Positions 18,276-60,744 of a stretch of 64,000 nucleotides of DNA are shown piece by piece. This stretch comes from a virus, in IMG/VR virus record IMGVR_UViG_3300046170_000301; one strand, written 5' to 3'. The translations under genes and the position numbers were made by a program. The number at the start of each line of letters is the position of its first letter. The stretch's first letter is position 1. The notes below the pieces were generated by a model. It made no database searches and was not told where the DNA came from. It worked only from the letters and a program-made list of their open reading frames with translations.

Positions 18276-18457
18276 TCTTCTGATTGTTGACTTACTGGTT
18301 CGTCAAAAAAAGTAGAAGCAACTACTTTTTTATAATCATCTAATGTTTTTGCTGCTTGTGAATAAAGCATATCATCAATGATATCAATCGCTTCCGCTCT
18401 TTTTTTGTCGTAAAGCAAGTTAACAACATCTAGAGCTTCGGGTTCTTTTTTATCCAT
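18272..18457 (-). CDS. Small prohead core protein (gp67/68 position)
   Basis: Position between gp20 and gp21, late promoter upstream. Confidence 0.65.
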   Translation of the reverse strand: MDKKEPEALDVVNLLYDKKRAEAIDIIDDMLYSQAAKTLDDYKKVVASTFFDEPVSQQSEE

Positions 18458-32822: not shown

Positions 32823-33012
32823 GTCTGATCAGTTCTTTCAAGAGGCTTTTTATTTCAAAGACTTCATCCTTCAAGTTATTTATGTCATCTACAGCAGCGT
32901 TAAATTTGTTGGTAAATGATTGTTTATTGGGAGTTTCTGTGTTGATAATAGCACCAGTGGAAGGGTCACGATACAATCTCTCATGACCTTTTACTTTCAA
33001 ATAATTATTCAT
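32797..33012 (-). CDS. Conserved hypothetical protein (KVKGHERLYRDPSTGAIIN + coiled coil)
   Basis: Typical gene downstream of the large virion protein. Confidence 0.75.
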   Translation of the reverse strand: MNNYLKVKGHERLYRDPSTGAIINTETPNKQSFTNKFNAAVDDINNLKDEVFEIKSLLKELIRHADSNNRT

Positions 33013-36000
33013 TAGTATGAAGCAACAGCACGAATATCTTGAATCTTAGAAGCATAAACTGGGTCATCTCCTTTCATAACAATTTTAATAGCAAAGGAAC
33101 TAAACTCCGCTAAGTTTGAATCGCTATAACGAAGTTCTTGATATGATTGTTGCTTTTCAAATTGTCCTGATATTGTATTTACCTGAGATGCAATAACATC
33201 ATTATCAGAAGAACCATCACCATTAAAAGCAATCCATTCAATATCATCAAAGTTAGACTGTGATGATAGTTGTTTGGTTCTGTAATATATCTTAATATCA
33301 TCAATACTCTTCAAATTAGCAGTAATTCTCACATCAATACCAGTGCCAGGAGAATCTATAGAAATCTCTTTTGTTGTATACTTAGCAACAGCAGAAGTAT
33401 TCTTAGAATTAGTTTCTTTTGAATACTCAACGCCAGTAGTGTAGGTTAAAGATGAAATTTCATAAAAACGCAAACTATCAGTTGGTAATCCAGTAAATGA
33501 AATCAAATCGCCAACTCTAAAGATATCATTAGATTGGTCTGCTACAGTTGTTGCTCTAGTGTAACCAGTTTCTTCTGTTGTAGCAGTGTAGTTATCATTG
33601 ATTGGATTTTTATCGTTTTCAATAAACAACTCTTTTGTCTTTGGATTCCAATTTTTAATAAGTCCAGTAATTTTATTTACATAAATGATACTTGGATTTT
33701 GAATATTAGAAGCAGTAATAATTTCATCAACATTGAACGAAATTGGTTCTTCTACAACAGCAATAGAAGCACTGATGTTTGCTGTGTCGCCATCAGATAA
33801 GGTGACTTCTTCTCCAGTTAAGAATGGATTAGAACTCTTTGTTTTGACAAAGATTTGATTAGCACTAATTTTAACGATAGTTCCAAATGCACCAGAATCA
33901 CTTCCAACAACATTAGTATTCAAATAATCAAATGTTAATGAAGTGTCAATAGTAAATTTATAAATTGGGAAAAACTTAAGAACTTGATATCTCTTACCAA
34001 ATCTATTTTCAAATCCAGTAGCATTTTCAATTTTGTTTGATGTAAGTTTTACGCTAGAACATCTTAAATCAATAACTGGAGATAGATATGAACGGTCTGA
34101 ACTTAGATTTAATTTGTAAGTCAGTGACCTATCAACATTATTAATAACTTCATTGATTCTAGAAGAAATTATTTTTTGATTGGTGAAATAATGAATCTGA
34201 TTAATAAAAGTTCTTTCATAATCTTCTTCTGAATAAGAAGTGTGGTTTAAAGTTTGGGAATCAACTGGAACAATATTGGTAGTCTTGACAAAACTATCAA
34301 TGCTAGTATTAGCAACTTGTAAATATCCTACTTGAGCATAAAGTTTTTCATATTTTCTATTATAAGAAGCAAGAATATTTCTTCCACCACCAATTTGAGT
34401 AGAACTTGCTCGTGAAGGAGCTTTGATAGTGTAGTAATCTAGACCACAATCAATAACTTCAAACAAAGTATTATTCATGGATATATTAGCCAATCCACCA
34501 ACATCTTCCATAGAATTAAAGAATGTGTAGGAAGCACCATCTTCAAATCCATTGTTTCTATGGTTTATTTTAACAATAAAATTATTATTTTTGAATAGGT
34601 TTGAAGATGCATTTGAATCAGCAAAAGAGTAAGTTTCAACTGGGTCTACTGATAATTTCTCTAAACCTAAGTTTTTGTTAGTAAGAAGAAGTTCTGCTAT
34701 TCTTGCATTATCAAACTCTGCTCTATAAAGACTAAACTTGATATCTTCAAATAAGTCTTCTGTCCATGCTCCAATATTTTGGTTCTTGTAGACAGAACCT
34801 AATAGTGGTTGAGTAGTTACATTTACACTGGTAGCAATTTCTACCTCTCCAAGTCTAGATGCCCACACTTCATAACCAATAGAATCTGTCTCAATAGTCA
34901 ATGAGTATTCAGAATCATTTTGAAGATATACTGGGTACTCAAAATTAAATCTTGTAGGCGTCGTAGAAGCGGTTGTAATGCCGTCATCAACGGCGACACC
35001 CATTCTGATAGCGGGAGTATCTATTTCGATTTCTGCCCTAATAGAAGCGCCGCTAGCGCCCGATCCGATGCCTCTAACAACTACAGATGGTGAGTCTGTA
35101 TATCCAGAACCAGAAAGCACTAAAGTTGTGTCGTAAATCCTACTATCAGAGACACTAACAACACCAGTTGCATTACTTCCTCCTGGAAGTTGTGGACTTT
35201 CAATCGTGATTGAAGCAGAGTCGTACTTCTCTCCAGCAGAATCTAAAATCAACGAAGTTACTTTACCAGCATCTTTAGCAATAGTTAAAGTAAGTCCAGT
35301 TGCATTTTTGTTATTGAATAGAGTCAACGATGGAATCTCTAGAATTTCATTCTGCAAGAATGAGATGCCATTGTTATTTGATAATGCAAGAGTATAAATC
35401 TGTTCATTATTGAGTAGATATTCTCCAGAACTTGATGGAGATAACTCATTGTTAAATGAATCATATACTTTTGCTAAAGGTCCAGAAGCATTTGATTTCG
35501 ACCCTTTGATTAGTTCATTTTGTGTAATTGACAGAGACCCACTAGCATATACTCTAAGATAAGTATATGGCATTACAACTGATTCTGTTCCTGGAACAAT
35601 ATACTTGCCTGGTTTACCGCTATCTGTATTAGAAATATAAACTCTAATTGGCGCTACGTCGCTCTTTTTACTGAAGAATAAATCAACTCCAGTAACAAAT
35701 ACACCACCATCAAAGTTTTCTACTTTAAATGTTTGCGCTAGAGGATTTGGTCTTGCTTTTACATCAGTATTACTATCAATTAATTGTAGACCTTTATTTG
35801 CTTTAAAGTATGCTGGATACGTAGAAACAATAGTAGAGGGATTTTCTGGTAGAATCCCAGCCGAATAGAACTTTCTTTCTGCATAAGTTTCTACTTCTTC
35901 TATAGAAATATTAGTAGAACTAGAAGTAAATCTTACTGTTTTGATGCCAGTAGTAAAGTTTACTTCTTCTCCAGAACTGTCATAAGAAACTGTATTAACA

Positions 36001-39000
36001 TCTCCAGTCCATCTTGTATTTTCTACTGGTGGCAATCCAGATGGCATCAAAATAATTCCACTAGCACTTCCAGTTTCATCCGTAATAATTGGCGAATTGA
36101 ATGCGGTTAAAGAATTGCCAGCAATACCAGTAAATCTAGAATCTGGATTTGTCCATCTACCAACATTTCTGCCATCAATAAAAGCATATACTTGAGTTAA
36201 GGGCTTTAATCTTGAGATGGTAAACTTAATTGGAATACTTCTGCTGAATAACTGAACAGAAGATATAACGGAAGTGTTATTTACATTCTTAGATTGTGCT
36301 CCTTTTGCCAACTCATTGTTTTGAGGACTGATGTTAGAAGAACTCGCAATAGACGCTTGTTCAACAGAAGACTCAATAAGTTCAGTGTTAATGTTTGCAA
36401 AAGAGTTAATATTGTAGAAAGCTTTGTTAACACCAACCCAGTTTACTACAAAGAAGTCAAACAAACTTGAATATCCATCTTCTGGATTTGGTTTTGATAA
36501 AAAGATGGAAAACAGATTTGTATTGTTATCAGTTACAAGTGGAGATGTTGAAGTATCAAACCATTGGTCTACAGTTGGAGATAGATGTAAATCACCAACA
36601 TATTGTAATACAACAAATGGATTTGGATTAATTGTCTTGGTTGCAAAAGAGTTTCCAAGAAGTTTAGTATTTCTATAAGGTAGAGTTACAACACCATTTG
36701 TATTTGTATAACCAGCAATTTCTCTTTCATCACTTCTTGTGTAAACCTCTCTTAAATTGAAGCAATCTTCACTAACTTGTGGTCTAAGTAACGATTGTTG
36801 AGTATCAATAGAACACTTGTAATCTGGTGATTTGGAGTTTCCAACTTTATGGGACTCAAAATTATCAACAATAAATCCACTCTTAAATCTATCTAAACCA
36901 ATATCATCCTTGATTTGCATGTTTAATGCTTGTTGTTCAAGGATACTGAGAGTTGTGTAATATTCAAGACGCTCAATACGCTTTTCAAGTTTACCAATAT
37001 CTCTCATTGTATATCTACGATTGTCAACAGGAACAATCCTTACATCCTTACTAGACTTAGTATAAGCAGGAATATGTAAGTAATATAGAGCAATCGCATC
37101 ATCTAGTGGAGCTGGTTTTGATGGGTTTAGAGATGGGTTACCTTCTTTAACAATAAACTTACCATCTTTATCTAAGAAAACCCCATCAATTCTATCAAGA
37201 TATCTCTCTTCGTTAAACTTAACTGTGTAATCAATTGTTGCATCATGTGCTGGTGTGCTAGATGAAACACCACCTTCTTGAGCAAATGATAAGAAGTTAG
37301 TAGAAGAAAGAATAGATTTGTTCTGGAATCCAGCAACGATATTTGTGTTATCTGCTTTTGGTCTAAAATCAAATACATCTTTCAGTGATACAAGACCATG
37401 AACATTTGAGTTGAAATATGGAATCTCATCTGCAAATACCCCAGATTCATGTAAGTAAGAATCAACTGTACAGAAGTCACCTTGAGAATGTTCAAAATAA
37501 TCGAAACCAATAATCAACTGACCAGTTGGTTGCTCAAATCCTGGTTTCAATACAATTCTTGATACATCATAGAATGTATCTCTTTGTCCATCATCAAATG
37601 TAAATCTATTTGTAACGTCAGTTCCAGTAATCAAGTTTCCAGCACTATCTACTGCTGGTGGAGTTGACACTGTTCCTTCATACACATAACGAAGTATGTA
37701 AGCATCAGAATAAGAACTTACCTTGATTTCTCCGCTATCATAATCCTGTCCTCTTAGAGGAATCACTTTATCATTGTTTGATACGACAACAATCTTTTTG
37801 TTCTCTACAGAAGTTTTTAGTTTTGGTTTTGCTTTAGAAACTTCTAGTGTCGCAGTTAGTTTAAGTTTTGGGAAGTTAGTTGTAATATTCCCAAAGAAAT
37901 TTTGTGGGAAATTTATTTCTACGCTACCAGCAGATAAATTGCTAGTAGAGTTAACAATATTGACGTACTCTTCTTTTAAGTAAATAACATCGCCATCTTC
38001 AAACTCTGTTGAAGAATTTTTTTCTAGAACAGTAACAATAAAATTAGATTGACCGAATGAAACAAATCTTTGAGTTCCAAATGGTAATTGTGCCGCAAAA
38101 GTTACATTACCACCACTACTAGCACCAGTGATTACAAAATCTCTTCTGATATGATAAGAGATTTTAGAATCAGTGATGTCTTTCATGATTGCAGCAACTT
38201 CTTTTCCTCCTGTTGGGTATACCAATGAAGAAGATGAAGAGTTTTCTACAATAGGACGTAATCTAATAACTGTAGCATTTACTACATTATTTTGAAGAAC
38301 ACTATCTAGATAGATTCTAGATTTTTTAGGTTCCACTTGGAGTTGTAGCGTATTGAACAATAACTCTAACAAGAGTTCCATCAGCATCAGAAAACTGAAT
38401 CAAATCACCTTGTACAAGTTGCTTCGATGCATCAGAATCAAATCCATTACATTCAATAAATTTATCACCTTTTGAACCAGAGAATGTAAAGTTAGTTACC
38501 TGAACAGATTCTGTATACTCTCCTTTGTTTAATTCAATATCTGATGTAAATCTATTAGAGTTACCAGAACCATAAACAGAAAATACTGACTTAGTGTTCT
38601 GTAGGTTATATGTTAATACAACATTTTTGAATAGAACTGCATCAACTACAATATCGCCACCAGTACCAGTTATTTCTACTAGCGGTGGTTGTGAATACTC
38701 TTGCTGTAATCCATCTCTATTAGAAATTTCAATTCTAGAAACTAATGAACCTTTAAGGATTGGCTTTACTACTGAAGTATCATAAGTGATACCATCAATT
38801 TTTACATTATCTGATGCTGAATATCCACTTGCTCTTTTAGTGACAACAAAATGAGAAATGGTATTTTCAGACGCAATTCTTAGTGAATTGCCTTCTTCAT
38901 CAAAAATAGTTTCTCCAGATTCAAACTCACCAGAAAGCGTCCTAATAAAAATAATATTTCCAGTGCTGTATTTCCCACCAGACTTCCCTTCAATGACTCC

Positions 39001-42986: not shown

Positions 42987-45900
42987 TCAACTAAAACTCC
43001 TTATGTATTGATTAATGTTCCATTCCTGAGCAATTGTGTTTTCTTGCCCTCTAAGAAGACTATCAAAAGTAGTTTGTGTTTTTGATTGATAATACACAAT
43101 TTCATTACCAATTATTAATTTTCCAGAAGTTGGAAATCCAGAAGTACTATTAACATTTATAGTTAAAATTTCTACATTAGAAAAATTAGCTGATAATATA
43201 GTCGCATATTCATTTATAGATACTGTAGTCAAATTAAACCAATCTTTAGTAATAGTATAACTTGATTTTATTCTGTCTGTAAAATCCAAAATAGTTAATT
43301 CTGGATAATATAAATCAATCATTTCAAGTGTTAATTCAGAAACTTTTGCTACTCCCGCAGTGTTAAATTTTGATTTTTCAAAATTTGAGAAGGATGGAAT
43401 TAATGAACCTAATTCATAAGTTTCATTTCCAACATAATCAATTACTCCAGTTTTTGTGGTAGTATTTTGATAAAAATTTGATGATACTAAAGAAACATTG
43501 TTATTTACTTTATCAAAATAAGAGGTAATTTTGACTATTTCTGATGGAGCTATAGATTCCACAGAAACTTTTGATTCTGTTGTTATTGTAATACTAGGAG
43601 CAGAAACAACAGAGGTGAAGTCTGGTAGATTTCTTAGATAATCTCCTGCACTATGGGTAGTAGCAACAGTATTAAATGTTCCTCTTTGAACATCTAAGAA
43701 ACGATCTGTTAACTTAGATTGGTAGGTAACAATCTCTTTTCCTACTAAAAGTCTTCCAGAATCTGGGAAATTTCTAGTATCAGCAATGTAAATAATATCT
43801 TCAGTTTCATTAAGATCAATTTGCAAAAACGCACCAATATCATTAACTGTTGGTAAAGGATGCAGATGAATAGCATCTGTTATAATTTTTCTGATATTTA
43901 AATCAATTTGTCTATCAATTTTTTCAATTGTTGTTGAAGATATTACATTAAATCTAGTTGCAATAATTGACTGTACTTCTCTTTCTGTAGAAATAATAGA
44001 GTTTACAAAAAGTTTTGGAACCATTTGTAGAAAAGGAGAAATAATTTCCTGAACAACAGCTGGCGAAACTGATTTTTCATCTGGTTCAATTATAGAAGTA
44101 ATATTTGTATCATAATCTAAAGGTGTTGCTACATTTTTTGAAGTAATAGAACTAATATCATCAATAGAAGAAGAATCTATAATTACAAGTGAAGATATTG
44201 TAGATAAAGAAGCATTTAATTTTGGTGCAATTTTTAAAATTCTTACATTATCTGCAATTCTTTTATTTGTTTTGTATAGGTTAAATCCTCTTGATACAAC
44301 AACTTTTGGTGGTTCTGTATATCCACTACCACCATCAGTAAGAACAATATCTAAAATATGTCCACCATATGCAATAACTTCTGCTTTTGCTCCACCACCA
44401 GCGTTATTTTCTGGGATAAAGTGTAAAAATGGTGGGGTGTAATACTGATATGCACTTGGATTTAGAATAAAATCATTTTCAAAAAATAGTTGCCATTGTC
44501 TTTTATTCCAGATTAACTCTACAACTTCGCCATTTTCTACAACAGCATTAACACTAAGACCTTCACCTCTTGTTATACCATTGTAATTTGTTGATTTAAC
44601 AGTTCCGTAATAAGAATCATTGACAACCTGATCTAAGTTGAAGTTGGTAGCATTTACCTTTTCTGGGACAGATAAAATTTCTCTTCTATCTTTCTCCCCA
44701 TCAATTTTTATTTCATCACCTTCTAATAACTTGGCATAAACTGAAGAACGTTCTCTCCACGTAGAAGCCTTCAATTCAGAGTCAAAAATCCATCTTACAG
44801 AATCTCTAACAAGTGTCCCATCAAAATTATTTACAACTTCACCATCAGAATCGTCATAAACTATTTCTGTAAATTTAGAAGAAATAGTAGTTCCTTCTGG
44901 AACAATTAATTCACCTTCTACTGTTATTGTTCCATAAACAGAATTTTCTTCGTTAGTAAATACATCTCCAGCTTCTACCAAAAGGTCTACAACAATGTTT
45001 AAAACATTATTAGCATCTAATTTTTTAGTAAAAATAAACTTAGGACCAGTAAATCTAATGTCATTTTCTTTAAGTAGTTGGTAATTTATAGGAGAAGCAA
45101 ATTTAATTTCCCATGAAGCATCATCAACCTTTCTATATCCTCTCAACTTACCTAGAATTTTTAATTCTTGAGTATCTTCATTTAATTGGTAAATATAAAC
45201 TTCGGAATGCTCACTTTCTGCCCATCTCAATACTTCATCTTGATCACCTTCTGATTGCAATCCATCACGTAACCAATCGACAAAACCAGAATAAGAACCA
45301 GAACCAAAGAAAATTACTTTTATTAAATTTACATATGTATCTGGTTCAAAATCATAAAATGTTAGAGTTTTTTCAATATCTCTACCATAGAATAATCTAA
45401 TATCAATGTCTGGATAAATTGTCTCTCCGTTAGTATCTGTGTAGTAATTTAACTTTTCTGTAAATACAATGTTTGATCCAGTTACAGAATAAGAAGAACT
45501 ATCTTGCAGAACTCCACCAACAAAAACTGCCAAATAATTTTCGTTATCTACTTTTCTTACTGTTTGAGTGTCCTTATCTAAAAGAAGATAAGGTCCTTTT
45601 CCAACATAAGGAATTAACTCTTTATTAATAATTAAGTTCTCATAACTACCAATACTAAAAGCAAATGCTTTTTCTACTGCAGTTGCTTCTTGTAAGTTTA
45701 ATGCACCATCATTTTGGTCCCATTTTGGAATATCACTGAATTTAACTCTATCAGTAACTGAGTTATTTTCGGATCTAATAATAGAATATGCAGAAGAGTT
45801 TTGAATGACGCCATTCAAAGAAATTATTAAGTCTTCGTTTGGATCTGTTTTTACAATATCTCCATTTTCATAATAAAGTTCAAATGTATCTGTTTCACCA

Positions 45901-48900
45901 TTAAAATAATCTGGCAATGATACAGTAACAGAATTTTTGCCGTTATTTAAAGTAGTTTGGATAGCACCAGATAAAGAATCTAATGCTGACAAGACATCTT
46001 GGCATTCTGTATTGAAAATTGGGTCATCTAAAATGATATTGTTATTAACATATGGTTTCAAAGTAGACCAATTTCCTTCTAAAGGAACATTTGATGGAGA
46101 TACTCTAACAATATTTTCCCCTTTGTTTAAAATGGTTTCTGCATTATTCAAAAATCCATTCAAAGAATCTATTACATTTTCACATCTTGGGATATTAGAA
46201 TCTATCAAAATTTCTGAGTCTACAACTGGAGCAGTTGATGTGTATGTTCCTGTAGGCAATTCATTTTGCATTGCCAAAATCATCAACTCAGTGGTTTTTT
46301 CTAAACCATCAATTAAAATATCCTTTTCCGATTCGGTTATAATTAATTTGTTATCAATATAAAAATTTCTACCAAACTGTAAAATTTTGGCGTTTCCACT
46401 GTATCTTAAATGATAAACATTAGATTTAATATAATCCTCAATATTTCTTTCTATAAAATTATTTGAAGAAATGCTATAGTTATCTAAAATATAACCAAGA
46501 ACTTCTTCTTTAATATAAGTAATATTTGATTCAATGAGATTAGAAGCATCATAAAAAGTTCCATTGTTTATATTACTCAAATAGAATGTTATTTGAGCAA
46601 CTGAACCCCTAGTAATAGCAGAAACTAGTATTCCAGGAAGATTTACATTAATAGTTCCAGCAGTAGAAACGTCACCATAAATTTCTTCTGAGTTAACATC
46701 ATAAGTTGCCCCAGACGAAACAGAAAGTGGTGGATACCCAAAAGCACCAATATCTGGGAAAGATTTTTTAGAAAGTTTTACTTGAGTAGCAGAAATAATT
46801 TCTGTAACTTTTGTATCATCTGGGAACTGAGAACCACTACTGACAACCATTCCAGGAACAATACCAAAAGTTGATGGTAAAGTAACTACATCAAAATCTG
46901 GTTCTATAATAACTGTAAACTCATTTATTTTATTTGTAAATGTAACATCCCAGTTTCTTACCGCAGCAGCACATGAGTTTAAAACAAAATCAAACATATC
47001 AAGAGTTTCTGTTTTTTGTTCGTTGATAAAGTTTAAATTTTCAGAACCATCAAAATACATTTCTGTATAAGAAACTGTTTTGAAATTGCCACCAAATCTT
47101 AAATCAAACTCAACAGCATCTATAATATACTTAATATCTTTAATATACTTATCTTCTAAAGTATTCCAAGAAACATCTGGATATTTTTCTTTTGCATAAC
47201 CAATGGCTTCTGCTGTAATAAAATTTTTATTATATCTTACTTGATTAGCAGAATCAATCCATCTACCATTACGTTGATAGATATTTTTAAGTTTTTTGAA
47301 ATACTGCTCATTTAAAGTATCATTTTTAAATTTTATAGTTTTACCATAAAATGCTTGTGGAGCAACTTTTTGTCCTTCTGCTATTCTTTTTCCTAAAGGA
47401 GGAATTGCAAAGGTAATTTGATTGTTATAAACTGTAAATGCTTTTCCTGGTTCTTGAACAACACCATCAATACTTACAATTATATGATTTTCATTAAAAG
47501 CAGATATAGCACTATTAGTGCGCTTGTCAAGCATAGTGAATGTCTTAGTTCCAACAATCTGACCAGTTGACGAATCATAATCTCCATCAAACTCTTTATC
47601 TAATACAAATTCATATGCTAAAGTTTCTTCTGTATTAAAAGTATCTACAGAAACACTACCATAACCTCTTCTTTCGTTTGTGTTATGATATTTTACAACA
47701 GATTGGGTAATTTTTCTTTCAGAACCTAAAACAGTAATAGATTTTAATGCCAAATCAATTTTTGATATTAACGATGATTTTGGTTGCTCTTCTGGGAAAG
47801 ATGATAGACCATCCGATTCAATCAAAACCTCGCCAAACATTTTAAACCCAGCTGGGTGGGTGGTCTGCTTAATAAGGTCCCTCCAAATATCAATTGGAGT
47901 TTTTGACTTAATTACATATGAGTAATCTTGATAAAAATACGAGTCTGTTAATTTTTGACTATTGGAACTTAACTTACCTCTATCTGAACGATAGTATCCA
48001 ATGTTATCATAATATGATTTTACTATTGGATTAAACGTCGTATATAGAATGCTAGAAATTTTTGCTATTTCTTGACCACTTCTATTCAATAGAGGAAGTG
48101 ATTTATCAAACTCTCCTTCAACAGAACGAACCTTCAGGATGTTTGAACCAATTCTCCACCCATCATTTGCTACAACTCCAGAGGCAATTTGCTTTCCATT
48201 ATTTTTTTGAAATATTAATTGTCCAGGACTGATGTTATACTCATTGAAGTCATTTAATAATAAAGAATAATTAGAAGAATATTTTGGAAGAATTGTTCTA
48301 TCCTTATGGAAAGCTCCACCATTGAAAAGTAACTTAACTGTTTGAGGAACACCAATAGAATTTGACCTAGCATAAAGTTTTGGTGAAGATTCTACTACTT
48401 TTAATGTTGGTTTGTATGTATATCCAGAACCACCAGAGAGAACGTCTATTCTAGTGATAGAACCATTTACTTGAACAGCATTAAATTTTACACCAGCGCC
48501 ATCTCCGTTATCAACAATAATTTTTGGATTAGTATAATTTTGCCCACCATCTACAACAGAAACAGAAACTATAGATTTTGTTATCGAGTCATACTCAACA
48601 TCAACTAAACTTTCTATAGTATCCGAAACATAAACCCCAGATACGATAGGAACAGATTTATAATCAAATCCAGTATTATCAATATCTACCGTATTAATTT
48701 GACCAACAGAGAATCTGGAAGTAGTTGTGTATGCCATATCACCACTTCCATTGTATTGTGGTTCAGATTCTACTTCGTATGCAAATTTATTTGAAGTTAC
48801 ATAATCAACTATTTTTCTTCCATTTAGTGGGTCTTCTATAATATTCAAAGATGAGTTGTCAGTATCTACATCAGTTGCTAGTATAAAGTAAACATAATTT

Positions 48901-51900
48901 AAAAATCTTGTTTGAACTTTTGTTTGGAAATTATTAGACTCTATATTTGGACCAAATCCAATTTTTAAAGAAACAAAAGAACCAGAGTTTCCTGGAGCAA
49001 CATCCGAAATAAATCTCTCTTCTGTAATAATATTATAATTAAAACTTGGAGAAAAATCTAAAAATGTATTAGTCATTGAAAAATGACTAGTATCAAATTT
49101 ATAAGAATAGTATTTTTGAATATCAATAGATGGATTGATTGCAAAGTTTGTTTGGTCTTGTGAAAACTCTAGTTTGAATGCAGGAGAGTTTACAGAAGAG
49201 ATACGAACAGACTTAGATGGTGTGCTTTGGTCAAATATAATATTTGAACTTACTAAAGCATTAGCAGTATCTAAATTTGTAGTGTAAGCAAAAGAAACTA
49301 CAAACTCTTGTGTTTTTTCATCATATTTTAATACATAAGGGTCTGTAGAAGCAGTTCCTATTGGTCGATAATTAAAATTAAATCTATATCTTGGATTGTA
49401 AACAGAAACTGTATTTCCTTCGTAGTGATTATTTGGTGTAGTTTCAAATTCTCCTCTAGAAACTGTTGCTGTATTAATAGTTCTATTAATAGAAGTAATC
49501 TTAACTATTTCATCATTAATTTTTAAATAATCATCTTCCGATAGATTACTTGAAGATTTTAATAATAGAGTATCACTATTGAAAGCAAATCCAGAATGGT
49601 CTACTCTAATAACTGGTGGTTTTTCTATAATATTAGTAAGAGTTTCATCTTCAATATTAGTGATAGTAATAATATCATTTGTATTAAAATTACTTCCAGG
49701 CGTTGTTATTTCAATTGTGGCATCTTCTGTTAATGATGTTATTGTTAGTGTTCCTTCTGCTTCTACTACATCATCACGCTGAAGAACTTCGTTTGAAATA
49801 TTAAATTTTACAGAATATGTTCCTGTGGCTATATATTTTCCAATATTAAGTATAGTAAACAGTTCAACTCCAGAATTAGCAATAGTAGTTTCAAAATTTG
49901 GCGCTGCTAAAGTTACAGTTTGATAAACTCTTTTCCTTACATAATAAGTAGTTTCTGTAGTAGAATCATCTGGATTTACATCAACTTCTACTACATCATT
50001 TAATGCCATATTATGCGTGTCATCTGTAGTGACAAGAGCATAATTTGAATTGATGCTAAAAGGATTGATATTTTCACTCAAAGAAGTAATAGTAAATATT
50101 TCAGAACCAGTTGTATTAGAAAGGTCTGTGCTTCTTAAAAAGTAACCTTCTGTAGTAGCAAATGAACCAGTTAACTCTTTAACTTTTACTGAGTTTTGAT
50201 TTACTGTAGATTCTAAAATTAACCCAGTAGCAATTTCGGAATCTTTCCCATCTGTGAGGGTTAAAGTGGCACCAGCAGTATAAGTAGAGTTTCTATCGAG
50301 TAGTAAGTTCAATACTTTAATAACATTATCACTAGAATCTTTCATAGTGAATGTGTCATCACTAGAAAATTCTCCGTCCACTTCTTCAAGTAAAATTACA
50401 TTATCTGTAAAAATATTACCAACAATCTTACCTTTAACACCAGTGTTGTTTTGCTCTAAAGTTTCTCCATCAAAAAGGTAACAATTTTCTGAAGTTTTGA
50501 TTTTTACTACACTTCCTTTTGATTTAATCGATAATACATCTTCTCCTTTTACACTAGAAACAAAAGCAGATGCTCCACTTCCTTCTGTGTCAAAATTATC
50601 AAATACTAGTTTATTCCCAACTTTAAATGATTTGGGCGAAGATACTACATCAACTCCCTCAACAAAACCAGATTTTACCGAATCTATTTTTGCGTTAACA
50701 CCAAAACCATTATTATAATCATTGGTAGTTCTCAAGCGTTTTACATTTTTTGGTAAGTCTAATTGAGATATAGAACTATTATAGTTTGAATCTACTGGTA
50801 AAGAATAATAGTTCTCTCCTAAAATGTAAGGAAATTCTGGGTTATTTGATGTATCGTTAGTAATAAAGTATGCATATACTCCATTTGGATAATCAGGAGT
50901 TACACAGAATCTGCCGTTATTTCTATCTAATTTTGTTTTTCCAGATTGAACTGATGGTTGCCATTCGTAGTCATCAATAAAAGTTCCCAATGGATATGTT
51001 GATACAGATGGACCATTTGATCTACTTAACTTCAGTACATACCCACTACGCATTCTGGTTATACTTGAAGAAGAATCTCTTGGTTCTTCGTAAGCATAAG
51101 GACCATAAATTGGATTGCCATCGTAGGCGTATCCAAGTATTTGAGAATGCTGGTTATTTGTGTCTTCGATTAAACTAGAGCTTATGTTATCTCCTAAAGA
51201 TGCTCTAAGTCTTACTGGGTCTGCGATTCTGCCATAACCATACCCATTATCTGGCAAATAATTTTCAAAGATGTATCCATAACTATCATCTAGATTTGAT
51301 TCTAACTGTTTAAATCTATTTTTACACCATCTTTTAATTTCTGCTGTAGCAGTGGCACCAGAACCTCTTGGAATAATTTCAACAATTGTATTTTCTTTAG
51401 TGTAAAATTTTCCTTCGTCAACAACTTCAAAATCTATAATGCGGCCATCATTTGATACAATAGCATTATATTCTGCAAATCTTCCTTTTCCTAGTCTATC
51501 ACTAATTCTAACAATAGGAGCACTAGAATAAAACTCTCCTGGGTCGTTAATAATTAAACTAGTAATTCTACCAGAAGTAATAACTGGTTCTACGCTTGCG
51601 TTCCTACCAGAAACAATTTCTACGGTAGGATTTGAATCATAGTCATCATTTTCTAAAATTTCAATAGAACTAACTACATTTCCAGACAGTGTTGCTCTTG
51701 CTTTACCAGAAACTCCATTAATAAGTACAAAAGGAGCAGATCTATACCCAGTTCCCTTTGTAACTAAATTTAATGATTCAATAGGACCAAAACTTACAAA
51801 GTCCTCATCTTTATAACTAAAAGCAATTGTGCCATCGACAAAAACGCCAACATCCCTTGTCGTAACTGGATAAATCTCAGTTGTTGTAGTTGGATACTTT

Positions 51901-53399
51901 CTAATTAGTTTTAAATGTTTTTGGTCTTTTATATCTCCACTGATAGTAGAGTTTAAAATTCTATGAGATGGAAAACTAGATGAACAAATATAATAATACT
52001 GTTCATCTTCATATACAGCAGAAACATCAGCAATAACATTGCTTAATGCATTTTGCAATACTTGATTTTGTGGAATTAATGGAGCAGTGTTGTCTGAGTT
52101 TATTTCCCATCTAACTAGGTTGGTTGTTTTGTCGTAGATGATTGGGTCTATTGTTTCAAAACCAGGACCAGAAATTTCTACAGAATCACCTACAGATGAA
52201 TATGGAGCAGCATTTTCAACTTGTAGGTCATAAAGAACTCCAAGAACAACAAATTTTACATCCCCAGAATTAACTGTGTAATAATTATAGACAGAGGTGC
52301 CTTCTGGATAAGAAAGAGAAGAAGACCTAGACCTAATAACAAATTGATTTACACTTTTAGTATCATAAGTAAATGTTTCGGTATTAATCAAAAACTGACC
52401 ACGATTTCTCCAACCTTCGGTTGAAAATACATTTACAACATCCCCTTCTACATCAGTTGAAGATACAGTTTTAGTTAATGTAGTCTTTGAAGTTACTTCA
52501 AACTCATCAAAAATTGAGTTTTTGTCTAAGATAATTTCATATAAAGTTTCGCCATCAAAACTTCCAAGTAACTTGACATTATCTACGATAGCAGAAACAT
52601 ATCTTGGTTCATATTGCTCAATCTTTTTCCCGATGAGAGATTCTGCGTCTCCATCAAGAATTTTGACTTTTAATGAGTAAGATGTAGTCCAGTCAGACGT
52701 AGAAGACTTTAAGGTGAAATCTCTTGGGTTATAAACAGAAGGAACATCGTCAGCTCCTTTTGCTACAATAGAATTGAAGATAAACTGAATTGACTTCTCA
52801 GTTCCTTTGGATCTATAAAAATCACCAATATACTTAATTAAAGTCCTTTTATCTACATCAGACTTTAAATATCTCTGTGGAAAATCGCTTAGATACTGCG
52901 CTTCAAAACTTTTTACAAAAGCATATAAGAATAGGTTACTTACGTTATATACTTGAACGCCACTTAAGTGATTTTCTGTATCTGTTGTTACAAAATTACT
53001 TTCTTCGTATAAGTCTCCTAGTCTTGTGTTACCACTGACTCCTCTAGATACTTCAAGAAACTCGGTATCAGTTCTTTCTTTATAAAAACAAATCTCATCA
53101 TCAATTTTGATGTATCCATTATATTGTGGAAAAGAACTAGCATCATCAACAAAAATAGTGCTATCGGTATTGTTGATATTTTCTGATAATACTGTAAATT
53201 GATTTAAAAGATTCTTTTCGTAATAATCAATATCACGATAAGTCTCTAAATTGCCAATAATATCCAGAGGTTGTCCTTTAGACTCTAATTGCTCGTAATA
53301 CTTCTCTACAAATAAAGAAAAATTCTCGTATTCAGACGCAATAAATCCTGGTAACTGAGATTCTATCAGTGTAGAGATTCTGTTGGTCTTAGTTGACAT
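42987..53399 (-). CDS. gp7: Baseplate wedge initiator, 3470 aa
   Basis: ISTLIESQLP...FYRSKGT; GYAYDGNPIYGPY; DSYFYQDYSYVIKS...HPAGFKMFG; between gp6 and gp8. Confidence 0.88.
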   Translation of the reverse strand: MSTKTNRISTLIESQLPGFIASEYENFSLFVEKYYEQLESKGQPLDIIGNLETYRDIDYYEKNLLNQFTVLSENINNTDSTIFVDDASSFPQYNGYIKIDDEICFYKERTDTEFLEVSRGVSGNTRLGDLYEESNFVTTDTENHLSGVQVYNVSNLFLYAFVKSFEAQYLSDFPQRYLKSDVDKRTLIKYIGDFYRSKGTEKSIQFIFNSIVAKGADDVPSVYNPRDFTLKSSTSDWTTSYSLKVKILDGDAESLIGKKIEQYEPRYVSAIVDNVKLLGSFDGETLYEIILDKNSIFDEFEVTSKTTLTKTVSSTDVEGDVVNVFSTEGWRNRGQFLINTETFTYDTKSVNQFVIRSRSSSLSYPEGTSVYNYYTVNSGDVKFVVLGVLYDLQVENAAPYSSVGDSVEISGPGFETIDPIIYDKTTNLVRWEINSDNTAPLIPQNQVLQNALSNVIADVSAVYEDEQYYYICSSSFPSHRILNSTISGDIKDQKHLKLIRKYPTTTTEIYPVTTRDVGVFVDGTIAFSYKDEDFVSFGPIESLNLVTKGTGYRSAPFVLINGVSGKARATLSGNVVSSIEILENDDYDSNPTVEIVSGRNASVEPVITSGRITSLIINDPGEFYSSAPIVRISDRLGKGRFAEYNAIVSNDGRIIDFEVVDEGKFYTKENTIVEIIPRGSGATATAEIKRWCKNRFKQLESNLDDSYGYIFENYLPDNGYGYGRIADPVRLRASLGDNISSSLIEDTNNQHSQILGYAYDGNPIYGPYAYEEPRDSSSSITRMRSGYVLKLSRSNGPSVSTYPLGTFIDDYEWQPSVQSGKTKLDRNNGRFCVTPDYPNGVYAYFITNDTSNNPEFPYILGENYYSLPVDSNYNSSISQLDLPKNVKRLRTTNDYNNGFGVNAKIDSVKSGFVEGVDVVSSPKSFKVGNKLVFDNFDTEGSGASAFVSSVKGEDVLSIKSKGSVVKIKTSENCYLFDGETLEQNNTGVKGKIVGNIFTDNVILLEEVDGEFSSDDTFTMKDSSDNVIKVLNLLLDRNSTYTAGATLTLTDGKDSEIATGLILESTVNQNSVKVKELTGSFATTEGYFLRSTDLSNTTGSEIFTITSLSENINPFSINSNYALVTTDDTHNMALNDVVEVDVNPDDSTTETTYYVRKRVYQTVTLAAPNFETTIANSGVELFTILNIGKYIATGTYSVKFNISNEVLQRDDVVEAEGTLTITSLTEDATIEITTPGSNFNTNDIITITNIEDETLTNIIEKPPVIRVDHSGFAFNSDTLLLKSSSNLSEDDYLKINDEIVKITSINRTINTATVSRGEFETTPNNHYEGNTVSVYNPRYRFNFNYRPIGTASTDPYVLKYDEKTQEFVVSFAYTTNLDTANALVSSNIIFDQSTPSKSVRISSVNSPAFKLEFSQDQTNFAINPSIDIQKYYSYKFDTSHFSMTNTFLDFSPSFNYNIITEERFISDVAPGNSGSFVSLKIGFGPNIESNNFQTKVQTRFLNYVYFILATDVDTDNSSLNIIEDPLNGRKIVDYVTSNKFAYEVESEPQYNGSGDMAYTTTSRFSVGQINTVDIDNTGFDYKSVPIVSGVYVSDTIESLVDVEYDSITKSIVSVSVVDGGQNYTNPKIIVDNGDGAGVKFNAVQVNGSITRIDVLSGGSGYTYKPTLKVVESSPKLYARSNSIGVPQTVKLLFNGGAFHKDRTILPKYSSNYSLLLNDFNEYNISPGQLIFQKNNGKQIASGVVANDGWRIGSNILKVRSVEGEFDKSLPLLNRSGQEIAKISSILYTTFNPIVKSYYDNIGYYRSDRGKLSSNSQKLTDSYFYQDYSYVIKSKTPIDIWRDLIKQTTHPAGFKMFGEVLIESDGLSSFPEEQPKSSLISKIDLALKSITVLGSERKITQSVVKYHNTNERRGYGSVSVDTFNTEETLAYEFVLDKEFDGDYDSSTGQIVGTKTFTMLDKRTNSAISAFNENHIIVSIDGVVQEPGKAFTVYNNQITFAIPPLGKRIAEGQKVAPQAFYGKTIKFKNDTLNEQYFKKLKNIYQRNGRWIDSANQVRYNKNFITAEAIGYAKEKYPDVSWNTLEDKYIKDIKYIIDAVEFDLRFGGNFKTVSYTEMYFDGSENLNFINEQKTETLDMFDFVLNSCAAAVRNWDVTFTNKINEFTVIIEPDFDVVTLPSTFGIVPGMVVSSGSQFPDDTKVTEIISATQVKLSKKSFPDIGAFGYPPLSVSSGATYDVNSEEIYGDVSTAGTINVNLPGILVSAITRGSVAQITFYLSNINNGTFYDASNLIESNITYIKEEVLGYILDNYSISSNNFIERNIEDYIKSNVYHLRYSGNAKILQFGRNFYIDNKLIITESEKDILIDGLEKTTELMILAMQNELPTGTYTSTAPVVDSEILIDSNIPRCENVIDSLNGFLNNAETILNKGENIVRVSPSNVPLEGNWSTLKPYVNNNIILDDPIFNTECQDVLSALDSLSGAIQTTLNNGKNSVTVSLPDYFNGETDTFELYYENGDIVKTDPNEDLIISLNGVIQNSSAYSIIRSENNSVTDRVKFSDIPKWDQNDGALNLQEATAVEKAFAFSIGSYENLIINKELIPYVGKGPYLLLDKDTQTVRKVDNENYLAVFVGGVLQDSSSYSVTGSNIVFTEKLNYYTDTNGETIYPDIDIRLFYGRDIEKTLTFYDFEPDTYVNLIKVIFFGSGSYSGFVDWLRDGLQSEGDQDEVLRWAESEHSEVYIYQLNEDTQELKILGKLRGYRKVDDASWEIKFASPINYQLLKENDIRFTGPKFIFTKKLDANNVLNIVVDLLVEAGDVFTNEENSVYGTITVEGELIVPEGTTISSKFTEIVYDDSDGEVVNNFDGTLVRDSVRWIFDSELKASTWRERSSVYAKLLEGDEIKIDGEKDRREILSVPEKVNATNFNLDQVVNDSYYGTVKSTNYNGITRGEGLSVNAVVENGEVVELIWNKRQWQLFFENDFILNPSAYQYYTPPFLHFIPENNAGGGAKAEVIAYGGHILDIVLTDGGSGYTEPPKVVVSRGFNLYKTNKRIADNVRILKIAPKLNASLSTISSLVIIDSSSIDDISSITSKNVATPLDYDTNITSIIEPDEKSVSPAVVQEIISPFLQMVPKLFVNSIISTEREVQSIIATRFNVISSTTIEKIDRQIDLNIRKIITDAIHLHPLPTVNDIGAFLQIDLNETEDIIYIADTRNFPDSGRLLVGKEIVTYQSKLTDRFLDVQRGTFNTVATTHSAGDYLRNLPDFTSVVSAPSITITTESKVSVESIAPSEIVKITSYFDKVNNNVSLVSSNFYQNTTTKTGVIDYVGNETYELGSLIPSFSNFEKSKFNTAGVAKVSELTLEMIDLYYPELTILDFTDRIKSSYTITKDWFNLTTVSINEYATILSANFSNVEILTINVNSTSGFPTSGKLIIGNEIVYYQSKTQTTFDSLLRGQENTIAQEWNINQYIRSFS

Positions 53400-57894: not shown

Positions 57895-57920
57895 ATAAAA
57901 AAGGGGGCGAATTACCCCCT
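57895..57920 (-). terminator. Terminator closing the early block
   Basis: AGGGGGT-AATTC-GCCCCCT plus U-tract. Confidence 0.8.
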
Positions 57921-57942
57921 GTTGAGTGTTAACGAGAAGGGG

Positions 57943-58224
57943 TCAATATCCCCCCTCTTCGATGTACTGTAAATCGTTACACTTTCTGGCCTTCGATATC
58001 ACCGAGCCGAGGGACAATCCCAGCAGGTCGGGGGATTTAATAACCTCAGAAAGGTGGGCGATAAACCTATCAGTAGCGAGGAAAATATAGGCCCTTTCGG
58101 TGTTACTTTGAAATGTAATTTCTACGAAATTCTTGTCAATCTCGATATTGTGAATTGCCTTGGATTGAGCAATCGTGAAAGTCCGATAAATGGGGCGATT
58201 GCTGATAACGAAGGAAACAGACAT
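57943..58224 (-). CDS. Hypothetical protein, KTSC-like
   Basis: SKAIHNIEI...VEITFQSN...Y...SLGSVI pattern. Confidence 0.6.
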   Translation of the reverse strand: MSVSFVISNRPIYRTFTIAQSKAIHNIEIDKNFVEITFQSNTERAYIFLATDRFIAHLSEVIKSPDLLGLSLGSVISKARKCNDLQYIEEGGY

Positions 58225-58289
58225 TTTGAGAAAAGTGAAGAGAATGGGAGGGGGGCTCGGTACCCCCCGTTGCTTGCTATCCTAGCAGA

Positions 58290-58598
58290 TCACAGGCGGG
58301 AGTTGCGATCCTGTGCCCACATCGCCAGGCGCTTGGTGCTGGCCTTGGAGAACACCCGATCGTTCTGGGTCACGTCGCCGTCATCGTGGCGGACGCAGTG
58401 GCGACCTGCAGCCTTGGCACATGCCTGGAGGGCACGACGGCCCTGTCGCTTATTGGGGCTGTCAGCCATGGCCAGGTTGAGAAGCAAGGAGGCCCGAAAG
58501 GCTCCGATCACCCGAGGACGGGCAATGAGCCGGGCAGCGCAGGTCTCAGCATCGCCCATCAGGGCGGAGAAGCGGGAGGAGGGGATCAGCTTGAGCAT
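58290..58598 (-). CDS. Basic early hypothetical protein with SKASTKRLAMW motif
   Basis: Own promoter TTGGCA-16-TAGGAT at 58647-58674; motif shared with 62844..63023. Confidence 0.7.
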   Translation of the reverse strand: MLKLIPSSRFSALMGDAETCAARLIARPRVIGAFRASLLLNLAMADSPNKRQGRRALQACAKAAGRHCVRHDDGDVTQNDRVFSKASTKRLAMWAQDRNSRL

Positions 58599-58696
58599 CT
58601 GTCTGGGGCGAGGGGTGGTGGAGGTGTGTCCCTCTCGCTTGAACATATCCTACACCATCGGGGGCACCTGCCAAGGGGTGAAACATAAAGAGAATC

Positions 58697-58793
58697 TAAA
58701 GAAACTGGCGGGGGCGTGAGAATAATTTTAGACAGGATCAGTGGCGACCTTTTACTTCATCAGGGCTACCCCGCCCCTCCCTCGATTGTCTCT
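58697..58793 (-). ncRNA. Candidate ~95-nt GC-rich early non-coding RNA
   Basis: Promoter TTGGCA-17-TAGACT (58799-58827); only ATG gives M-K-stop; GGCGGGG/CCCCGCC pairing; next gene has its own promoter. Confidence 0.5.
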
Positions 58794-58841
58794 CCCAAAG
58801 TCTACAGCATAGGGAGGCTGTTGCCAACCTCCCTGGCCAGA

Positions 58842-59009
58842 TCAATGGCGATCACTAATCTCAAAGCGACCCCAGACCTGGGGAGCTGGGATCCGACCCT
58901 CACGGATCGCTTGGCGGCGCTGGGCCTCTGCCAGCTCTTGACGACGAATGCTCTCCATGGCTGCCAGGATGGCGGGGTCCTTGAGAGCGGTTTCGTTGGT
59001 GATAAACAC
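58842..59009 (-). CDS. Small early hypothetical protein (GTG start, MFITNETALKDPAILAAM...)
   Basis: AGGAG RBS; promoter TTGCCA-17-TACACT at 59035-59063. Confidence 0.7.
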   Translation of the reverse strand: MFITNETALKDPAILAAMESIRRQELAEAQRRQAIREGRIPAPQVWGRFEISDRH

Positions 59010-59076
59010 GGTTTTCTCCTGTGTTGACTTTCTTAGTGTACAGCATAGGGGGGCTGTTGGCAACCCCCCAGGTGGC

Positions 59077-59265
59077 TCAATCTATCCCCATAGCCTTGCA
59101 CAGGTTTTCATAGGCTTGGCGGTAATAGTCTGCATCAGCATCCTTGCCAGCGATCCGACAATCACAAGCCAGGCACAGGACAGCGGTTCGGATAGTGCTC
59201 CACTGGGCCTCGGTGAGGGTGACGGTGCAGGTATCCAGGGGTAGGACGTTGGTTCGGACAGTCAT
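59077..59265 (-). CDS. Small early hypothetical protein
   Basis: Promoter TTCACA-16-TACACT at 59292-59319. Confidence 0.7.
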   Translation of the reverse strand: MTVRTNVLPLDTCTVTLTEAQWSTIRTAVLCLACDCRIAGKDADADYYRQAYENLCKAMGID

Positions 59266-59333
59266 CGTGTTCTGTAGTTGTGAACGTGCTCAGTGTAACA
59301 TGGATTGAGGGGCTGTGAAGCCCCTCGGGTAGA

Positions 59334-59474
59334 TTATTTGGCTTCGGGCTCTTCAGCCTCGCCAGCCCAGCTGGCCCAGGCTTCCATCATCTCATCAGTC
59401 AACTCGACCATGCCGAAGCACATCAGCTCCTCAACCTGCAGGTCGGTCAGGAACGGGGCGTGGAGGTTGTCCAT
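59334..59474 (-). CDS. Small acidic early protein, 46 aa (MDNLHAPFLTDLQVEELMCFG...)
   Basis: Hand-translated; promoter TTCACA-16-TACACT at 59501-59528. Confidence 0.65.
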   Translation of the reverse strand: MDNLHAPFLTDLQVEELMCFGMVELTDEMMEAWASWAGEAEEPEAK

Positions 59475-59542
59475 TGTGTTCTATAGTTGTGAACGTGTTC
59501 AGTGTAGCATGGATCAGGGGGCTGTGAAGCCCCCCTGACGGA

Positions 59543-59827
59543 TCACTCAGACCAGGATCGAACGGTGAAGGTGCCGTCATCCGTCACCTGGGCGTGAGCC
59601 CCGAAGGTGCCACCAAAGACAGCCGCCAGGATCTCGACACACTGCTCCAGCGTGAAGCCTTCGGGGTTGGTGAAGGTGCCCTCCACGACACAGCAGACGC
59701 CTTGGGCGGTGCAGGTGGTCTCACCGACACCCAGAGCACTATGGGCCGAAGCCAGGTCACGCATGGGCACGATGCCGAACCCAGGGATCTCGGTGGTGCT
59801 GGTGAAGCGGTCAGCAATGATACTCAT
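59543..59827 (-). CDS. Early hypothetical protein
   Basis: GGAG RBS; promoter TTGGCA-17-TACATT at 59854-59882. Confidence 0.7.
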   Translation of the reverse strand: MSIIADRFTSTTEIPGFGIVPMRDLASAHSALGVGETTCTAQGVCCVVEGTFTNPEGFTLEQCVEILAAVFGGTFGAHAQVTDDGTFTVRSWSE

Positions 59828-59901
59828 TGGGGGTCTCCCGTGTTGACTTCCTTAATGTACAGGCTGAGAGGGCTGTTGCCAACCCCCCCAGTGTGCAGTG
59901 C

Positions 59902-60654
59902 TCAGACCGTCACAGCCTGGCTAGTAGTTGCCTTGCGATAACCTCCAAACTTTCCAGCCTGGCGACGCTGGCGGATCGCTTTACCCCAGTCGCTACCCTT
60001 AGGCTGGGTGCCATGCACCAGCAAGGCAAAGGGGCGATCACCGAAACAGTGGCTGTCGTCGTGATCAACCTCCAGCCCCATGGCGTTTGCATCATCATCG
60101 GTCATCACAACCTTACTGTAACGGGGGAACAATCCTTCGTCGATCATGTAATCAAACTTGCCACCATAACTGGCAGTAAGGTAGAAGTTAGAGGGCAACT
60201 CTTGATTGACAAACAGCTCCAAAGATTTGCTGTAGCAGTAGAACTTAAGGTTGGGGTTCAATTGTGCAACTTTAATCCAAGCTTGCAGATAATCAAGGCT
60301 GAAAAAGTCACCCGATTCGTGGATACGAACCAGCTTAGTGTTGCGAGTCTTAAAATGGTTCAATGCAACGCTAATCTGTTCAGCAGCGTTATTAACACCC
60401 ACCTGCAGGTAATCTACAACGGTTTGCAAGTTATTGGCTCGGTTGTAGAAAGCTCCGTCGTATTGCACCTCGCTTGATGCAGCGAAACACCGAAAGATAG
60501 TGTGCTCACCATCTTGAATGCGACGCTTGCCGTTAGCATCAACAACGGCAAAGCTCTTGCAGAACAGAGCCCCAGGGCAGGTCTTACCTGCAGGCAAGTT
60601 AAAGATCAGGGTGCTTGTACCAAGCTTGGCGTTGCCTTTAGAAAATGTGAGCAT
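59902..60654 (-). CDS. Gp88-like protein (Cys cluster plus RIHESGDF motif)
   Basis: FNLPAGKTCPGALFC...CFA...RIHESGDFFS...AW...FYCYSKS; start trimmed to MLTFSKGNAKL. Confidence 0.7.
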   Translation of the reverse strand: MLTFSKGNAKLGTSTLIFNLPAGKTCPGALFCKSFAVVDANGKRRIQDGEHTIFRCFAASSEVQYDGAFYNRANNLQTVVDYLQVGVNNAAEQISVALNHFKTRNTKLVRIHESGDFFSLDYLQAWIKVAQLNPNLKFYCYSKSLELFVNQELPSNFYLTASYGGKFDYMIDEGLFPRYSKVVMTDDDANAMGLEVDHDDSHCFGDRPFALLVHGTQPKGSDWGKAIRQRRQAGKFGGYRKATTSQAVTV

Positions 60655-60744
60655 GGGTCGATTGATTGACGACAAAGGTATATTATTCGAGGGAGGGGCC
60701 ATCACAACCCCTCTTGTGTCACTAATGCCACTGGCACATATTCT

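Follow-up and report, generated by a model that had tools for sequence, protein, structure and literature searches.

Cyanomyoviruses are among the most abundant viruses of lakes and oceans, yet to our knowledge almost nothing is known of their non-coding RNAs. Small RNAs that are present as several "sibling" genes are familiar from other settings, in the cyanobacterial Yfr2-5, the Vibrio Qrr1-5 and the CsrB/RsmY-type decoys. The predicted RNA unit described here is similarly short, has its own promoter and terminator, occurs in one to four diverged copies per genome and sets invariant single-stranded motifs beside a small hairpin; it differs from all of these in being encoded by phages only and in having no sequence similarity to any Rfam family. 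Phages also encode small RNAs, lambda OOP and P22 sar, that are antisense to a neighbouring gene. The cyanophage unit resembles them as a predicted small phage transcript with its own promoter, often opposite in direction to its neighbours, but unlike them it lies clear of coding sequences, and a search of the elements' own loci gave no complementary site.

The architecture of the locus recalls a third system, the promoter-early stem-loop (PeSL) cassettes of T4-type phages, which are promoter-terminator joints flanking protein ORFs (Arbiol et al. 2010, PMC2839356; Comeau et al. 2014, PMC4122927). As in a PeSL, the cassette head at our locus joins a GC stem-loop to a sigma-70-like early promoter and recurs among the small ORFs of a variable region. 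Unlike in a PeSL, the conserved and covarying part sits downstream of the promoter, within the predicted transcript, and in most relatives the RNA element is driven by another type of promoter, consisting of a palindrome and a -10 box.

We refer to the whole 64-kb stretch of viral DNA that was analysed as the window. It is part of a T4-like marine Synechococcus phage whose closest DNA matches are the cyanomyoviruses S-RIM44, Syn1, S-PM2 and Sf-FR1; its genes lie on the minus strand and its GC content is about 33%.

A promoter cassette without a protein-coding cargo

Between 57.9 and 60.1 kb (57900-60100) the window contains an island of 55-65% GC, which carries five hairpin-plus-promoter cassettes on the minus strand together with small ORFs. 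Four of these cassettes (heads at 59888, 59535, 59325 and 59069) precede ORFs of 94, 46, 62 and 55 codons respectively, with a leader of 26-30 nt from the -10 box to the ORF. The fifth, found by direct reading at 58833-58799 (Table 1), has no such ORF: the ~150 nt that follow it hold none beyond ATG-AAG-TAA, and the ATG at 58760 is the only one between 58798 and 58697. A preliminary description of this DNA had claimed that the TTGGCA-17-TAGACT cassette leads an ORF-less cargo in which the sole ATG reads M-K-stop, in contrast to every other such cassette of the block, each of which precedes an ORF, and that the next gene has a promoter of its own; both statements are borne out, the second by a TTGGCA-16-TAGGAT promoter that is conserved as TCGACA-17-TAGGAT in relatives.

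The cassette reads GGGAGG-TTGGCA-ACAG-CCTCCC, followed by TAGACT, and a transcript is predicted to start near 58792. The sequence features of this head, and those of a twin at 59069-59035, are those of a PeSL cassette, and the 29-nt cassette core occurs twice in the window (second occurrence 59063-59035) against zero occurrences expected from 100 shuffles. At the window -10 box, TGTAGACT and then GGGGACAATC are homologous to the family members L017 and L018.

Table 1. Coordinates of the promoter cassette, the small-RNA element and the downstream gene in the window.
Feature	Position	Strand	Basis	Remarks
GC hairpin GGGAGG...CCTCCC	58812-58833	-	direct reading and promoter scan	holds the -35 hexamer; head of the PeSL-type cassette
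Hairpin arms	GGGAGG 58833-58828; CCTCCC 58817-58812	-	direct reading	
-35 hexamer TTGGCA	58827-58822	-		inside the hairpin
-10 hexamer TAGACT	58799-58804	-	promoter scan	17 bp spacing from TTGGCA
Conserved small-RNA core	58712-58795	-	model R1	84 nt; leader, P1, invariant blocks, variable decamer
Hairpin P1	58762-58777	-	sole RNAalifold helix	GGGGC 58777-58773; loop GGGGTA 58772-58767; GCCCT 58766-58762
ATG AAG TAA	58752-58760	-		start of the family's facultative micro-ORF; stop at codon 3
Near-invariant blocks GA-Y-GA-M-AA...UCGCCAC	58741-58756	-		GAAGUAAAAGGUCGCCAC in the window; deviates at 58756 and 58754
Variable decamer TGATCCTGTC	58731-58740	-		family form N5-C-(T/A)-GCC
Distal C-run CACGCCCCCGCC, then T-rich stretch	58696-58718	-		specific to the window copy
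Promoter of next gene, TTGGCA-16-TAGGAT	58647-58674	-	promoter scan	-10 and leader conserved in eight IMG/VR relatives
Downstream gene	58290-58598	-		102 codons; encodes a basic protein of unknown function; 10 viral contigs have homologues at 65-75% identity

A widespread and uncatalogued family in T4-like cyanophages

We regard the cargo of this cassette as an atypical copy of a widespread, uncatalogued RNA gene family of ~110 bases in T4-like cyanophages (Kyanoviridae), which we define by alignment A2 and covariance model R1. The model scores the window core at 76 bits (E 9e-15), as the sole copy in the 64-kb window, and nhmmer gives the same core 64 bits. A weak model match at 18256-18293 (-) covers only the leader-like AAGUCAACAAUCAGAAGA; because it extends no further than this, the family leader can be said to resemble the common early 5' UTR of the phage.

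The first homologues of the ORF-less stretch were those on L002 and L009, among eight aligned viral contigs. A degenerate 34-nt pattern matched at least 39 IMG/VR loci, a second pattern at least 120 loci in metagenomes (freshwater lakes, estuaries, TARA and GOS), and a third, anchored only on the leader and hairpin at the 5' side, at least 120 more IMG/VR loci. Over all fetched loci, nhmmer returned at least 321 matches at no fewer than 267 loci, representing at least 218 distinct versions. Because the patterns by which most sequences were gathered hold part of the core constant, ascertainment accounts for some of the invariance within the family; about 75 were gathered with a pattern that leaves the GA-Y-GA-M-AA...UCGCCAC region unconstrained.

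Of ~50,000 records of cultured phages, that of Synechococcus phage DSL-LC03 (Kyanoviridae) alone carries the element. Its one copy scores 86.6 bits and lies on the minus strand at 82218-82301 of OR003938.1, in a gap left free of annotation; a blastn comparison of the window element with cultured phages gave only a weak match to the same phage, and Sf-FR1 has no copy. A search of 185,579 prokaryote species genomes gave a single match, L255, which is NZRO01000035.1, a contig of 14.8 kb from a Flavobacteriales MAG, probably of cyanophage origin and binned in error. A host origin was rejected on this absence from all species genomes but one MAG contig, and the family is, by its distribution, phage-specific.

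The preliminary description had named a homologue collection and an Rfam scan as checks: the former produced numerous homologues with strong covariation at one hairpin, and in the latter no known family matched the window element. Rfam 15 gave no match to the whole window at the gathering threshold and none at the element of L026 at E<=5, and a full-text literature search by topic and by 12-mers of the element found no description. The family is thus new to Rfam, and it is unannotated in the one cultured carrier.

One hairpin is supported by covariation

RNAalifold on 144 distinct sequences returned hairpin P1 and no other helix. P1 is 99.9% paired across these sequences and shows compensatory changes at four of its five pairs (88 cells); 0 of 500 shuffles reached the observed values, and slid controls collapse. 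The pair at columns 27-34 occurs as CG, AU, GC and UA, and that at columns 25-36 as GC, UA, CG and AU. More than ten versions of the stem exist, also in copies without any start codon, among them GGGGC/GCCCU, GGUGC/GCACU, GGAGC/GCUCU, GGGGA/UCCCU and GGGGU/ACCCU, and further GGCGG/CCGCU, GCGGU/ACCGU, GGGCG/CGCCU, GAGGC/GCCUU and GGGCC/GGCCU. The closing pair is G.U in 140 of the 144 sequences, and this fixes the sense strand, because the closing bases pair as G.U only on that strand. Mutual-information scans of 144 and of 218 sequences also single out P1, which is a proven helix and the only one. The window has it at its fixed place with the NNGGUA loop, as GGGGC-GGGGUA-GCCCU.

The folds drawn in the preliminary description fared less well. 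Its alternative pairings can indeed be drawn and are present in the minimum-free-energy fold, but they show no covariation, and the window fold is no more stable than those of shuffled sequences (z -0.56 and -0.63); single-sequence folds across the family range from z -0.6 to -2.3 against shuffles. The GGCGG/UCGCC helix has zero compensatory changes and a central pair that is broken in 51/144 sequences, the pairing of GGCGGGG with a distal C-run has a family equivalent that does no better than slid controls, and the inner GGG-UAG-CCC hairpin was placed in the wrong register, the proven helix being GGGGC/GCCCU around GGGGUA. Two candidates of our own were also rejected, namely a second hairpin GAYGA/UCGCC (one-sided changes only, with outer pairs broken in the unbiased sequences) and a pseudoknot between the loop GGUA and UGCC (again one-sided changes only).

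The words UGAUGA and CUGA, to which the preliminary description had also pointed, stand at 58762-58757 and 58741-58738 of the window RNA. UGAUGA is not a conserved word: the two bases ahead of GA (columns 40-41) vary freely among A, U, C and G, and the hint of a C/D-box RNA therefore falls; the word depends on these free columns and on column 44, and the window CUGA lies in the hypervariable pentamer. A hammerhead ribozyme was rejected as well (CUGAUGA not conserved, no GAAA after stem II, one covarying helix and no Rfam match), and ARAGORN found neither a tRNA nor a tmRNA in the window. What remains of the "immediate-early structured ncRNA" originally proposed is an element conserved at the RNA level, with its own promoter and one covarying hairpin; the fold given for it is lost, and for the "immediate-early" timing the only basis is the sigma-70-like promoter sequence, from which early expression would follow.

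Anatomy of the unit

A TAnnnT -10 hexamer stands at a fixed upstream distance in 148/148 full-length copies. In most relatives the -35 box is absent and a GTGCCA-N10-TGGCAC palindrome, often common to the divergent gene, takes its place. The family -10 box is of the sigma-70 type and makes for a predicted early-type promoter, the transcript of which would be ~110-120 nt long. This predicted transcript begins near ACAA with a leader of 12-14 nt that ends in an SD-like GAGG and resembles the ordinary early-mRNA leaders of these phages. The leader is followed, in order, by the 5-bp P1 with its GGGGUA loop, GA-Y-GA-M-AA, 3-4 variable bases, UCGCCAC, a hypervariable pentamer, C(U/A)GCC and AUAAAAUAAU. 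Column counts over 144 and 218 sequences identify GAYGAMAA, UCGCCAC, CC(U/A)GCC and AUAAAAUAAU as near-invariant and apparently unpaired blocks.

The typical family unit closes with an A-rich spacer and, ~45 nt past the core, a terminator hairpin; 78 of 148 copies have a strict GC hairpin no more than 100 nt downstream, and the end hairpin usually also terminates the convergent neighbour gene. Most units lie on the strand opposite both neighbours, so that the promoter is divergent and the terminator convergent. We looked for a conserved gene neighbour and rejected the idea, as the neighbours vary (Kyano_Gp96, DUF6267 and many small ORFs).

At least 49 loci carry 2-4 sibling copies, which differ from one another in P1 sequence and in the pentamer. 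One locus, L268, has four copies of the unit within 2.2 kb, and convergent pairs of units ~60-70 nt apart were seen at L268 (6875-7095) and L321 (2235-2446). The family divides into two subfamilies, type I, which includes the window copy, and type II, which has one extra base before UCGCCAC, the -10 sequence TATCTT and the P1 stem GGGGA/UCCCU.

A trans-acting small RNA is the preferred reading

We infer the timing, ends and abundance of the transcript from sequence, and on that footing we favour, with somewhat better than even confidence, a trans-acting early small RNA that represents a new family of stand-alone phage RNA genes over a micropeptide mRNA. The RNA would act in trans early in infection, its invariant single-stranded blocks binding one conserved partner, perhaps a protein of the host or the phage, perhaps a conserved RNA. 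The part of P1 would be to display these blocks or to keep them stable, and having several diverged siblings in a genome would increase the dose or broaden the specificity. The window copy, which lies in a high-GC island that came from higher-GC phages, would be under the control of a PeSL-type promoter.

The family presents itself as a compact RNA gene with textbook covariation, found from freshwater to open-ocean samples, often in multiple copies and behind predicted early-type promoters. As such it offers a testable handle on early host takeover and a clean test case for distinguishing a small RNA from a micropeptide gene, and it accounts for many intergenic gaps that annotation of Kyanoviridae genomes leaves "empty".

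RNA or micropeptide

The unit could instead be a tiny early mRNA for a peptide of 10-12 residues with the consensus M-T-K-T-V-A-T-P-P-A-I-K, an alternative that we consider unlikely. T4 genes 38 and 25 have split ribosome-binding sites that are bridged by a hairpin, and type I copies are like them in sequence, with a compact hairpin exactly between the SD-like GAGG and the ATG, so that P1 would bring the two next to each other; unlike in the T4 genes, many copies of the family have no ATG. The window copy would be a pseudogene with a nonsense codon at position 3. An ATG directly follows P1 in 56 of 87 type I copies, 47 of which reach a stop at codon 10-12, and the encoded peptides are similar (M-T/M-K-T-V/I-A-T-P-P-A-I/L-K), with conservative changes (V/I, I/L/M/F and K/R) among them. 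Further points on the side of a peptide are that the two free bases before G42 read AU in most type I copies and never in the 57 type II copies; that where they read UA (giving TAG), position 44 is often U and an ATG is re-created one codon later; that unrelated codons (AUAAAA, UUCCGG) specify similar residues at the same C-terminal place (IK, LK, MK, LR, FR); that columns 59-79 show third-position-like variability; and that the leader, SD sequence included, is like the ordinary early 5' UTRs.

Against this, neither the start codon nor the frame is conserved across homologues. A start codon is missing from 28/87 type I and 51/57 type II copies (79/144 in all), these being the 32% and 89% of the two subfamilies that have no in-frame ATG, GTG or TTG. 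The 1-nt insertion of type II breaks the frame, yet the periodic pattern of columns 59-79 (window 58742-58722), which vary with a 3-nt period, is equally present in that subfamily, where there is no reading frame. Startless copies keep the same conserved bases, their own promoters and their own terminators, are scattered over many sub-lineages with no further decay, and include copies with compensatory P1 changes (e.g. L002 and L041). In the first half of the ORF the third positions (45, 48, 55 and 58) are invariant and the second positions (44, 47 and 57) vary, also in the sequences gathered without constraining this region, which leads to K/T/P/Q/S and A/V/D/E replacements. The preliminary description had named, as a finding that would refute its RNA reading, homologues with a conserved ORF of which this copy would be a pseudogene. 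This holds in part: a majority of type I copies are ATG-led and the window copy stops at codon 3, yet the many startless copies make the micro-ORF an unlikely explanation of the conservation.

The 3-nt period might stem from translation that lacks a canonical start, from an antisense frame, or from base pairing to a coding target. The periodic columns would be third positions of an antisense frame (MAGGVAT...); we dropped an antisense-strand micro-ORF, since every sequence with UUG on the sense strand lacks the ATG for it. A likeness to the mRNA-like domain of tmRNA lies in a startless stretch of eight codons, GCC ACN NNN CCN GCN AUA AAA UAA, which is 3-nt periodic, often ends in double stops and, as in tmRNA, is preceded by conserved non-coding sequence ending in GUC/AUC. 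Unlike tmRNA, the unit has no tRNA-like domain or acceptor stem, in agreement with the negative ARAGORN result, and the C-terminus of the stretch, unlike tmRNA degradation tags, is hydrophobic and then basic.

Pairing with a coding target is the core of another alternative, in which the siblings would be phage-specific riboregulators that pair, early in infection, with a conserved mRNA of the host (or phage) in its coding region or around its start. We rate it as distinctly improbable. The 3-nt periodicity of columns 59-79 would mirror the synonymous sites of the target, and the hypervariable pentamer would tune each copy to the allele of its host; if true, this would be a new cyanophage route to shut off a host function, readable from phage-host sequence co-variation. 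Within the elements' own loci no antisense target was found, complementarity to own and to foreign loci being alike (16.1 vs 17.0) and the top matches being sibling copies.

The window copy: largely intact core, missing terminator

P1 and most invariant bases are intact in the window copy, including UCGCCAC, and the copy reads GAAGU for GAYGA and CCUGUC for CCUGCC. Its bases at columns 44, 46 and 69 (58756, 58754 and 58732) are rare, being found in 3, 3 and 6 of 218 sequences. At 58754 a U makes the stop at codon 3, where 190/218 relatives have A, and at 58732 the window has T, where 212/218 sequences have C. A terminator scan from 58799 to 58598 found no site, there being neither a canonical terminator hairpin nor an A-rich spacer in that interval; the spacer is also absent from the closest relatives. 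The C-run CACGCCCCCGCC, ~25 nt further downstream than the CACGCCCCCUGCC of the family, could in a modelled fold pair with GGCGGGG as a long-range, terminator-like helix. As the copy has no terminator of its own, its transcript is probably read through into the next gene. The missing terminator, together with the three deviant near-invariant positions, raises the suspicion of decay, and the window copy would be either a functional read-through variant or a decaying copy that may be losing function.

We think it improbable that the window element, whatever the family does, has ceased to be an independent gene. It would then be a relic, stripped of spacer and terminator during assembly of the high-GC island and now merely part of a long 5' leader, with an extra upstream promoter, for the gene at 58598-58290. 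This reading is consistent with the missing terminator and the rare bases just described, and with the lack of a near-identical copy in IMG/VR, where an exact 30-mer of the window copy has no match. It also finds a parallel in the high-GC relatives with which the window copy groups (L002, L009, L041, L164 and L011), in which the element likewise lies upstream of, and co-directional with, a homologue of the 102-codon gene, without an obvious terminator. The same five contigs count on the other side, since an arrangement that is kept in all of them, with compensatory P1 changes in two, argues for continued selection in the upstream-of-gene context. Moreover, P1 and nearly all invariant bases are retained, the score of the window copy is within the range of the family, the downstream gene is served by a conserved promoter of its own, and the homologue of this gene in four relatives has no small-RNA element upstream.

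It is very improbable that the unit acts at the level of DNA, whether through a persistent R-loop for the priming of replication, on the model of T4 oriF/oriG or ColE1, or as a repeat that serves as a recombination motif for module shuffling, like the PeSLs: the succession of a promoter, a G-rich GGAGGGGCGGGG and a 30-nt A-rich spacer, the several copies per genome in hyperplastic regions with variable neighbours, and a repeat-rich gap of 18-20% GC ~1 kb from the window element would suit such a role, but covariation that preserves a hairpin with a sense-only G.U pair points to a folded RNA and not a DNA homology tract, paralogues within one genome are too diverged for homologous exchange, and the A-rich spacer is absent from the window copy and its closest relatives.

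The high-GC island and the downstream gene

Relatives of the island genes are found on viral contigs of 41-57% GC, which suggests that the island was acquired from higher-GC cyanophages of freshwater or estuarine origin. Its upstream edge is straddled by a 267-codon ORF (59902-60705, -) with a Pfam GP88 match (E 4e-41), and a palindromic box follows the stop of this ORF, ahead of the next cassette.

The protein of the 102-codon gene has no Pfam match. An ATG at 58646 abuts the -10 TAGGAT of the gene's promoter and reads ACG in relatives, so the gene's true start is ATG 58598, preceded by ~50 nt of conserved leader (GUUCAAGCGAGGGGGACAGACCUCCACCACCCC), which could adopt a fold of its own. Upstream of homologues of this gene we observed a second conserved non-coding block (GGGTCTACCTCCAATCTAGCACGGCGA.CGCCCCC ... 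GTGTGCCA), on L007, L008, L010, L004, L002 and L009. The block lies between the terminator and the gene's promoter and is kept even where there is no small-RNA element; it is missing from the window. Elsewhere in the window, the structural region holds very long minus-strand ORFs at 42987-53399 (3470 codons) and 33012-38387 (1791 codons).
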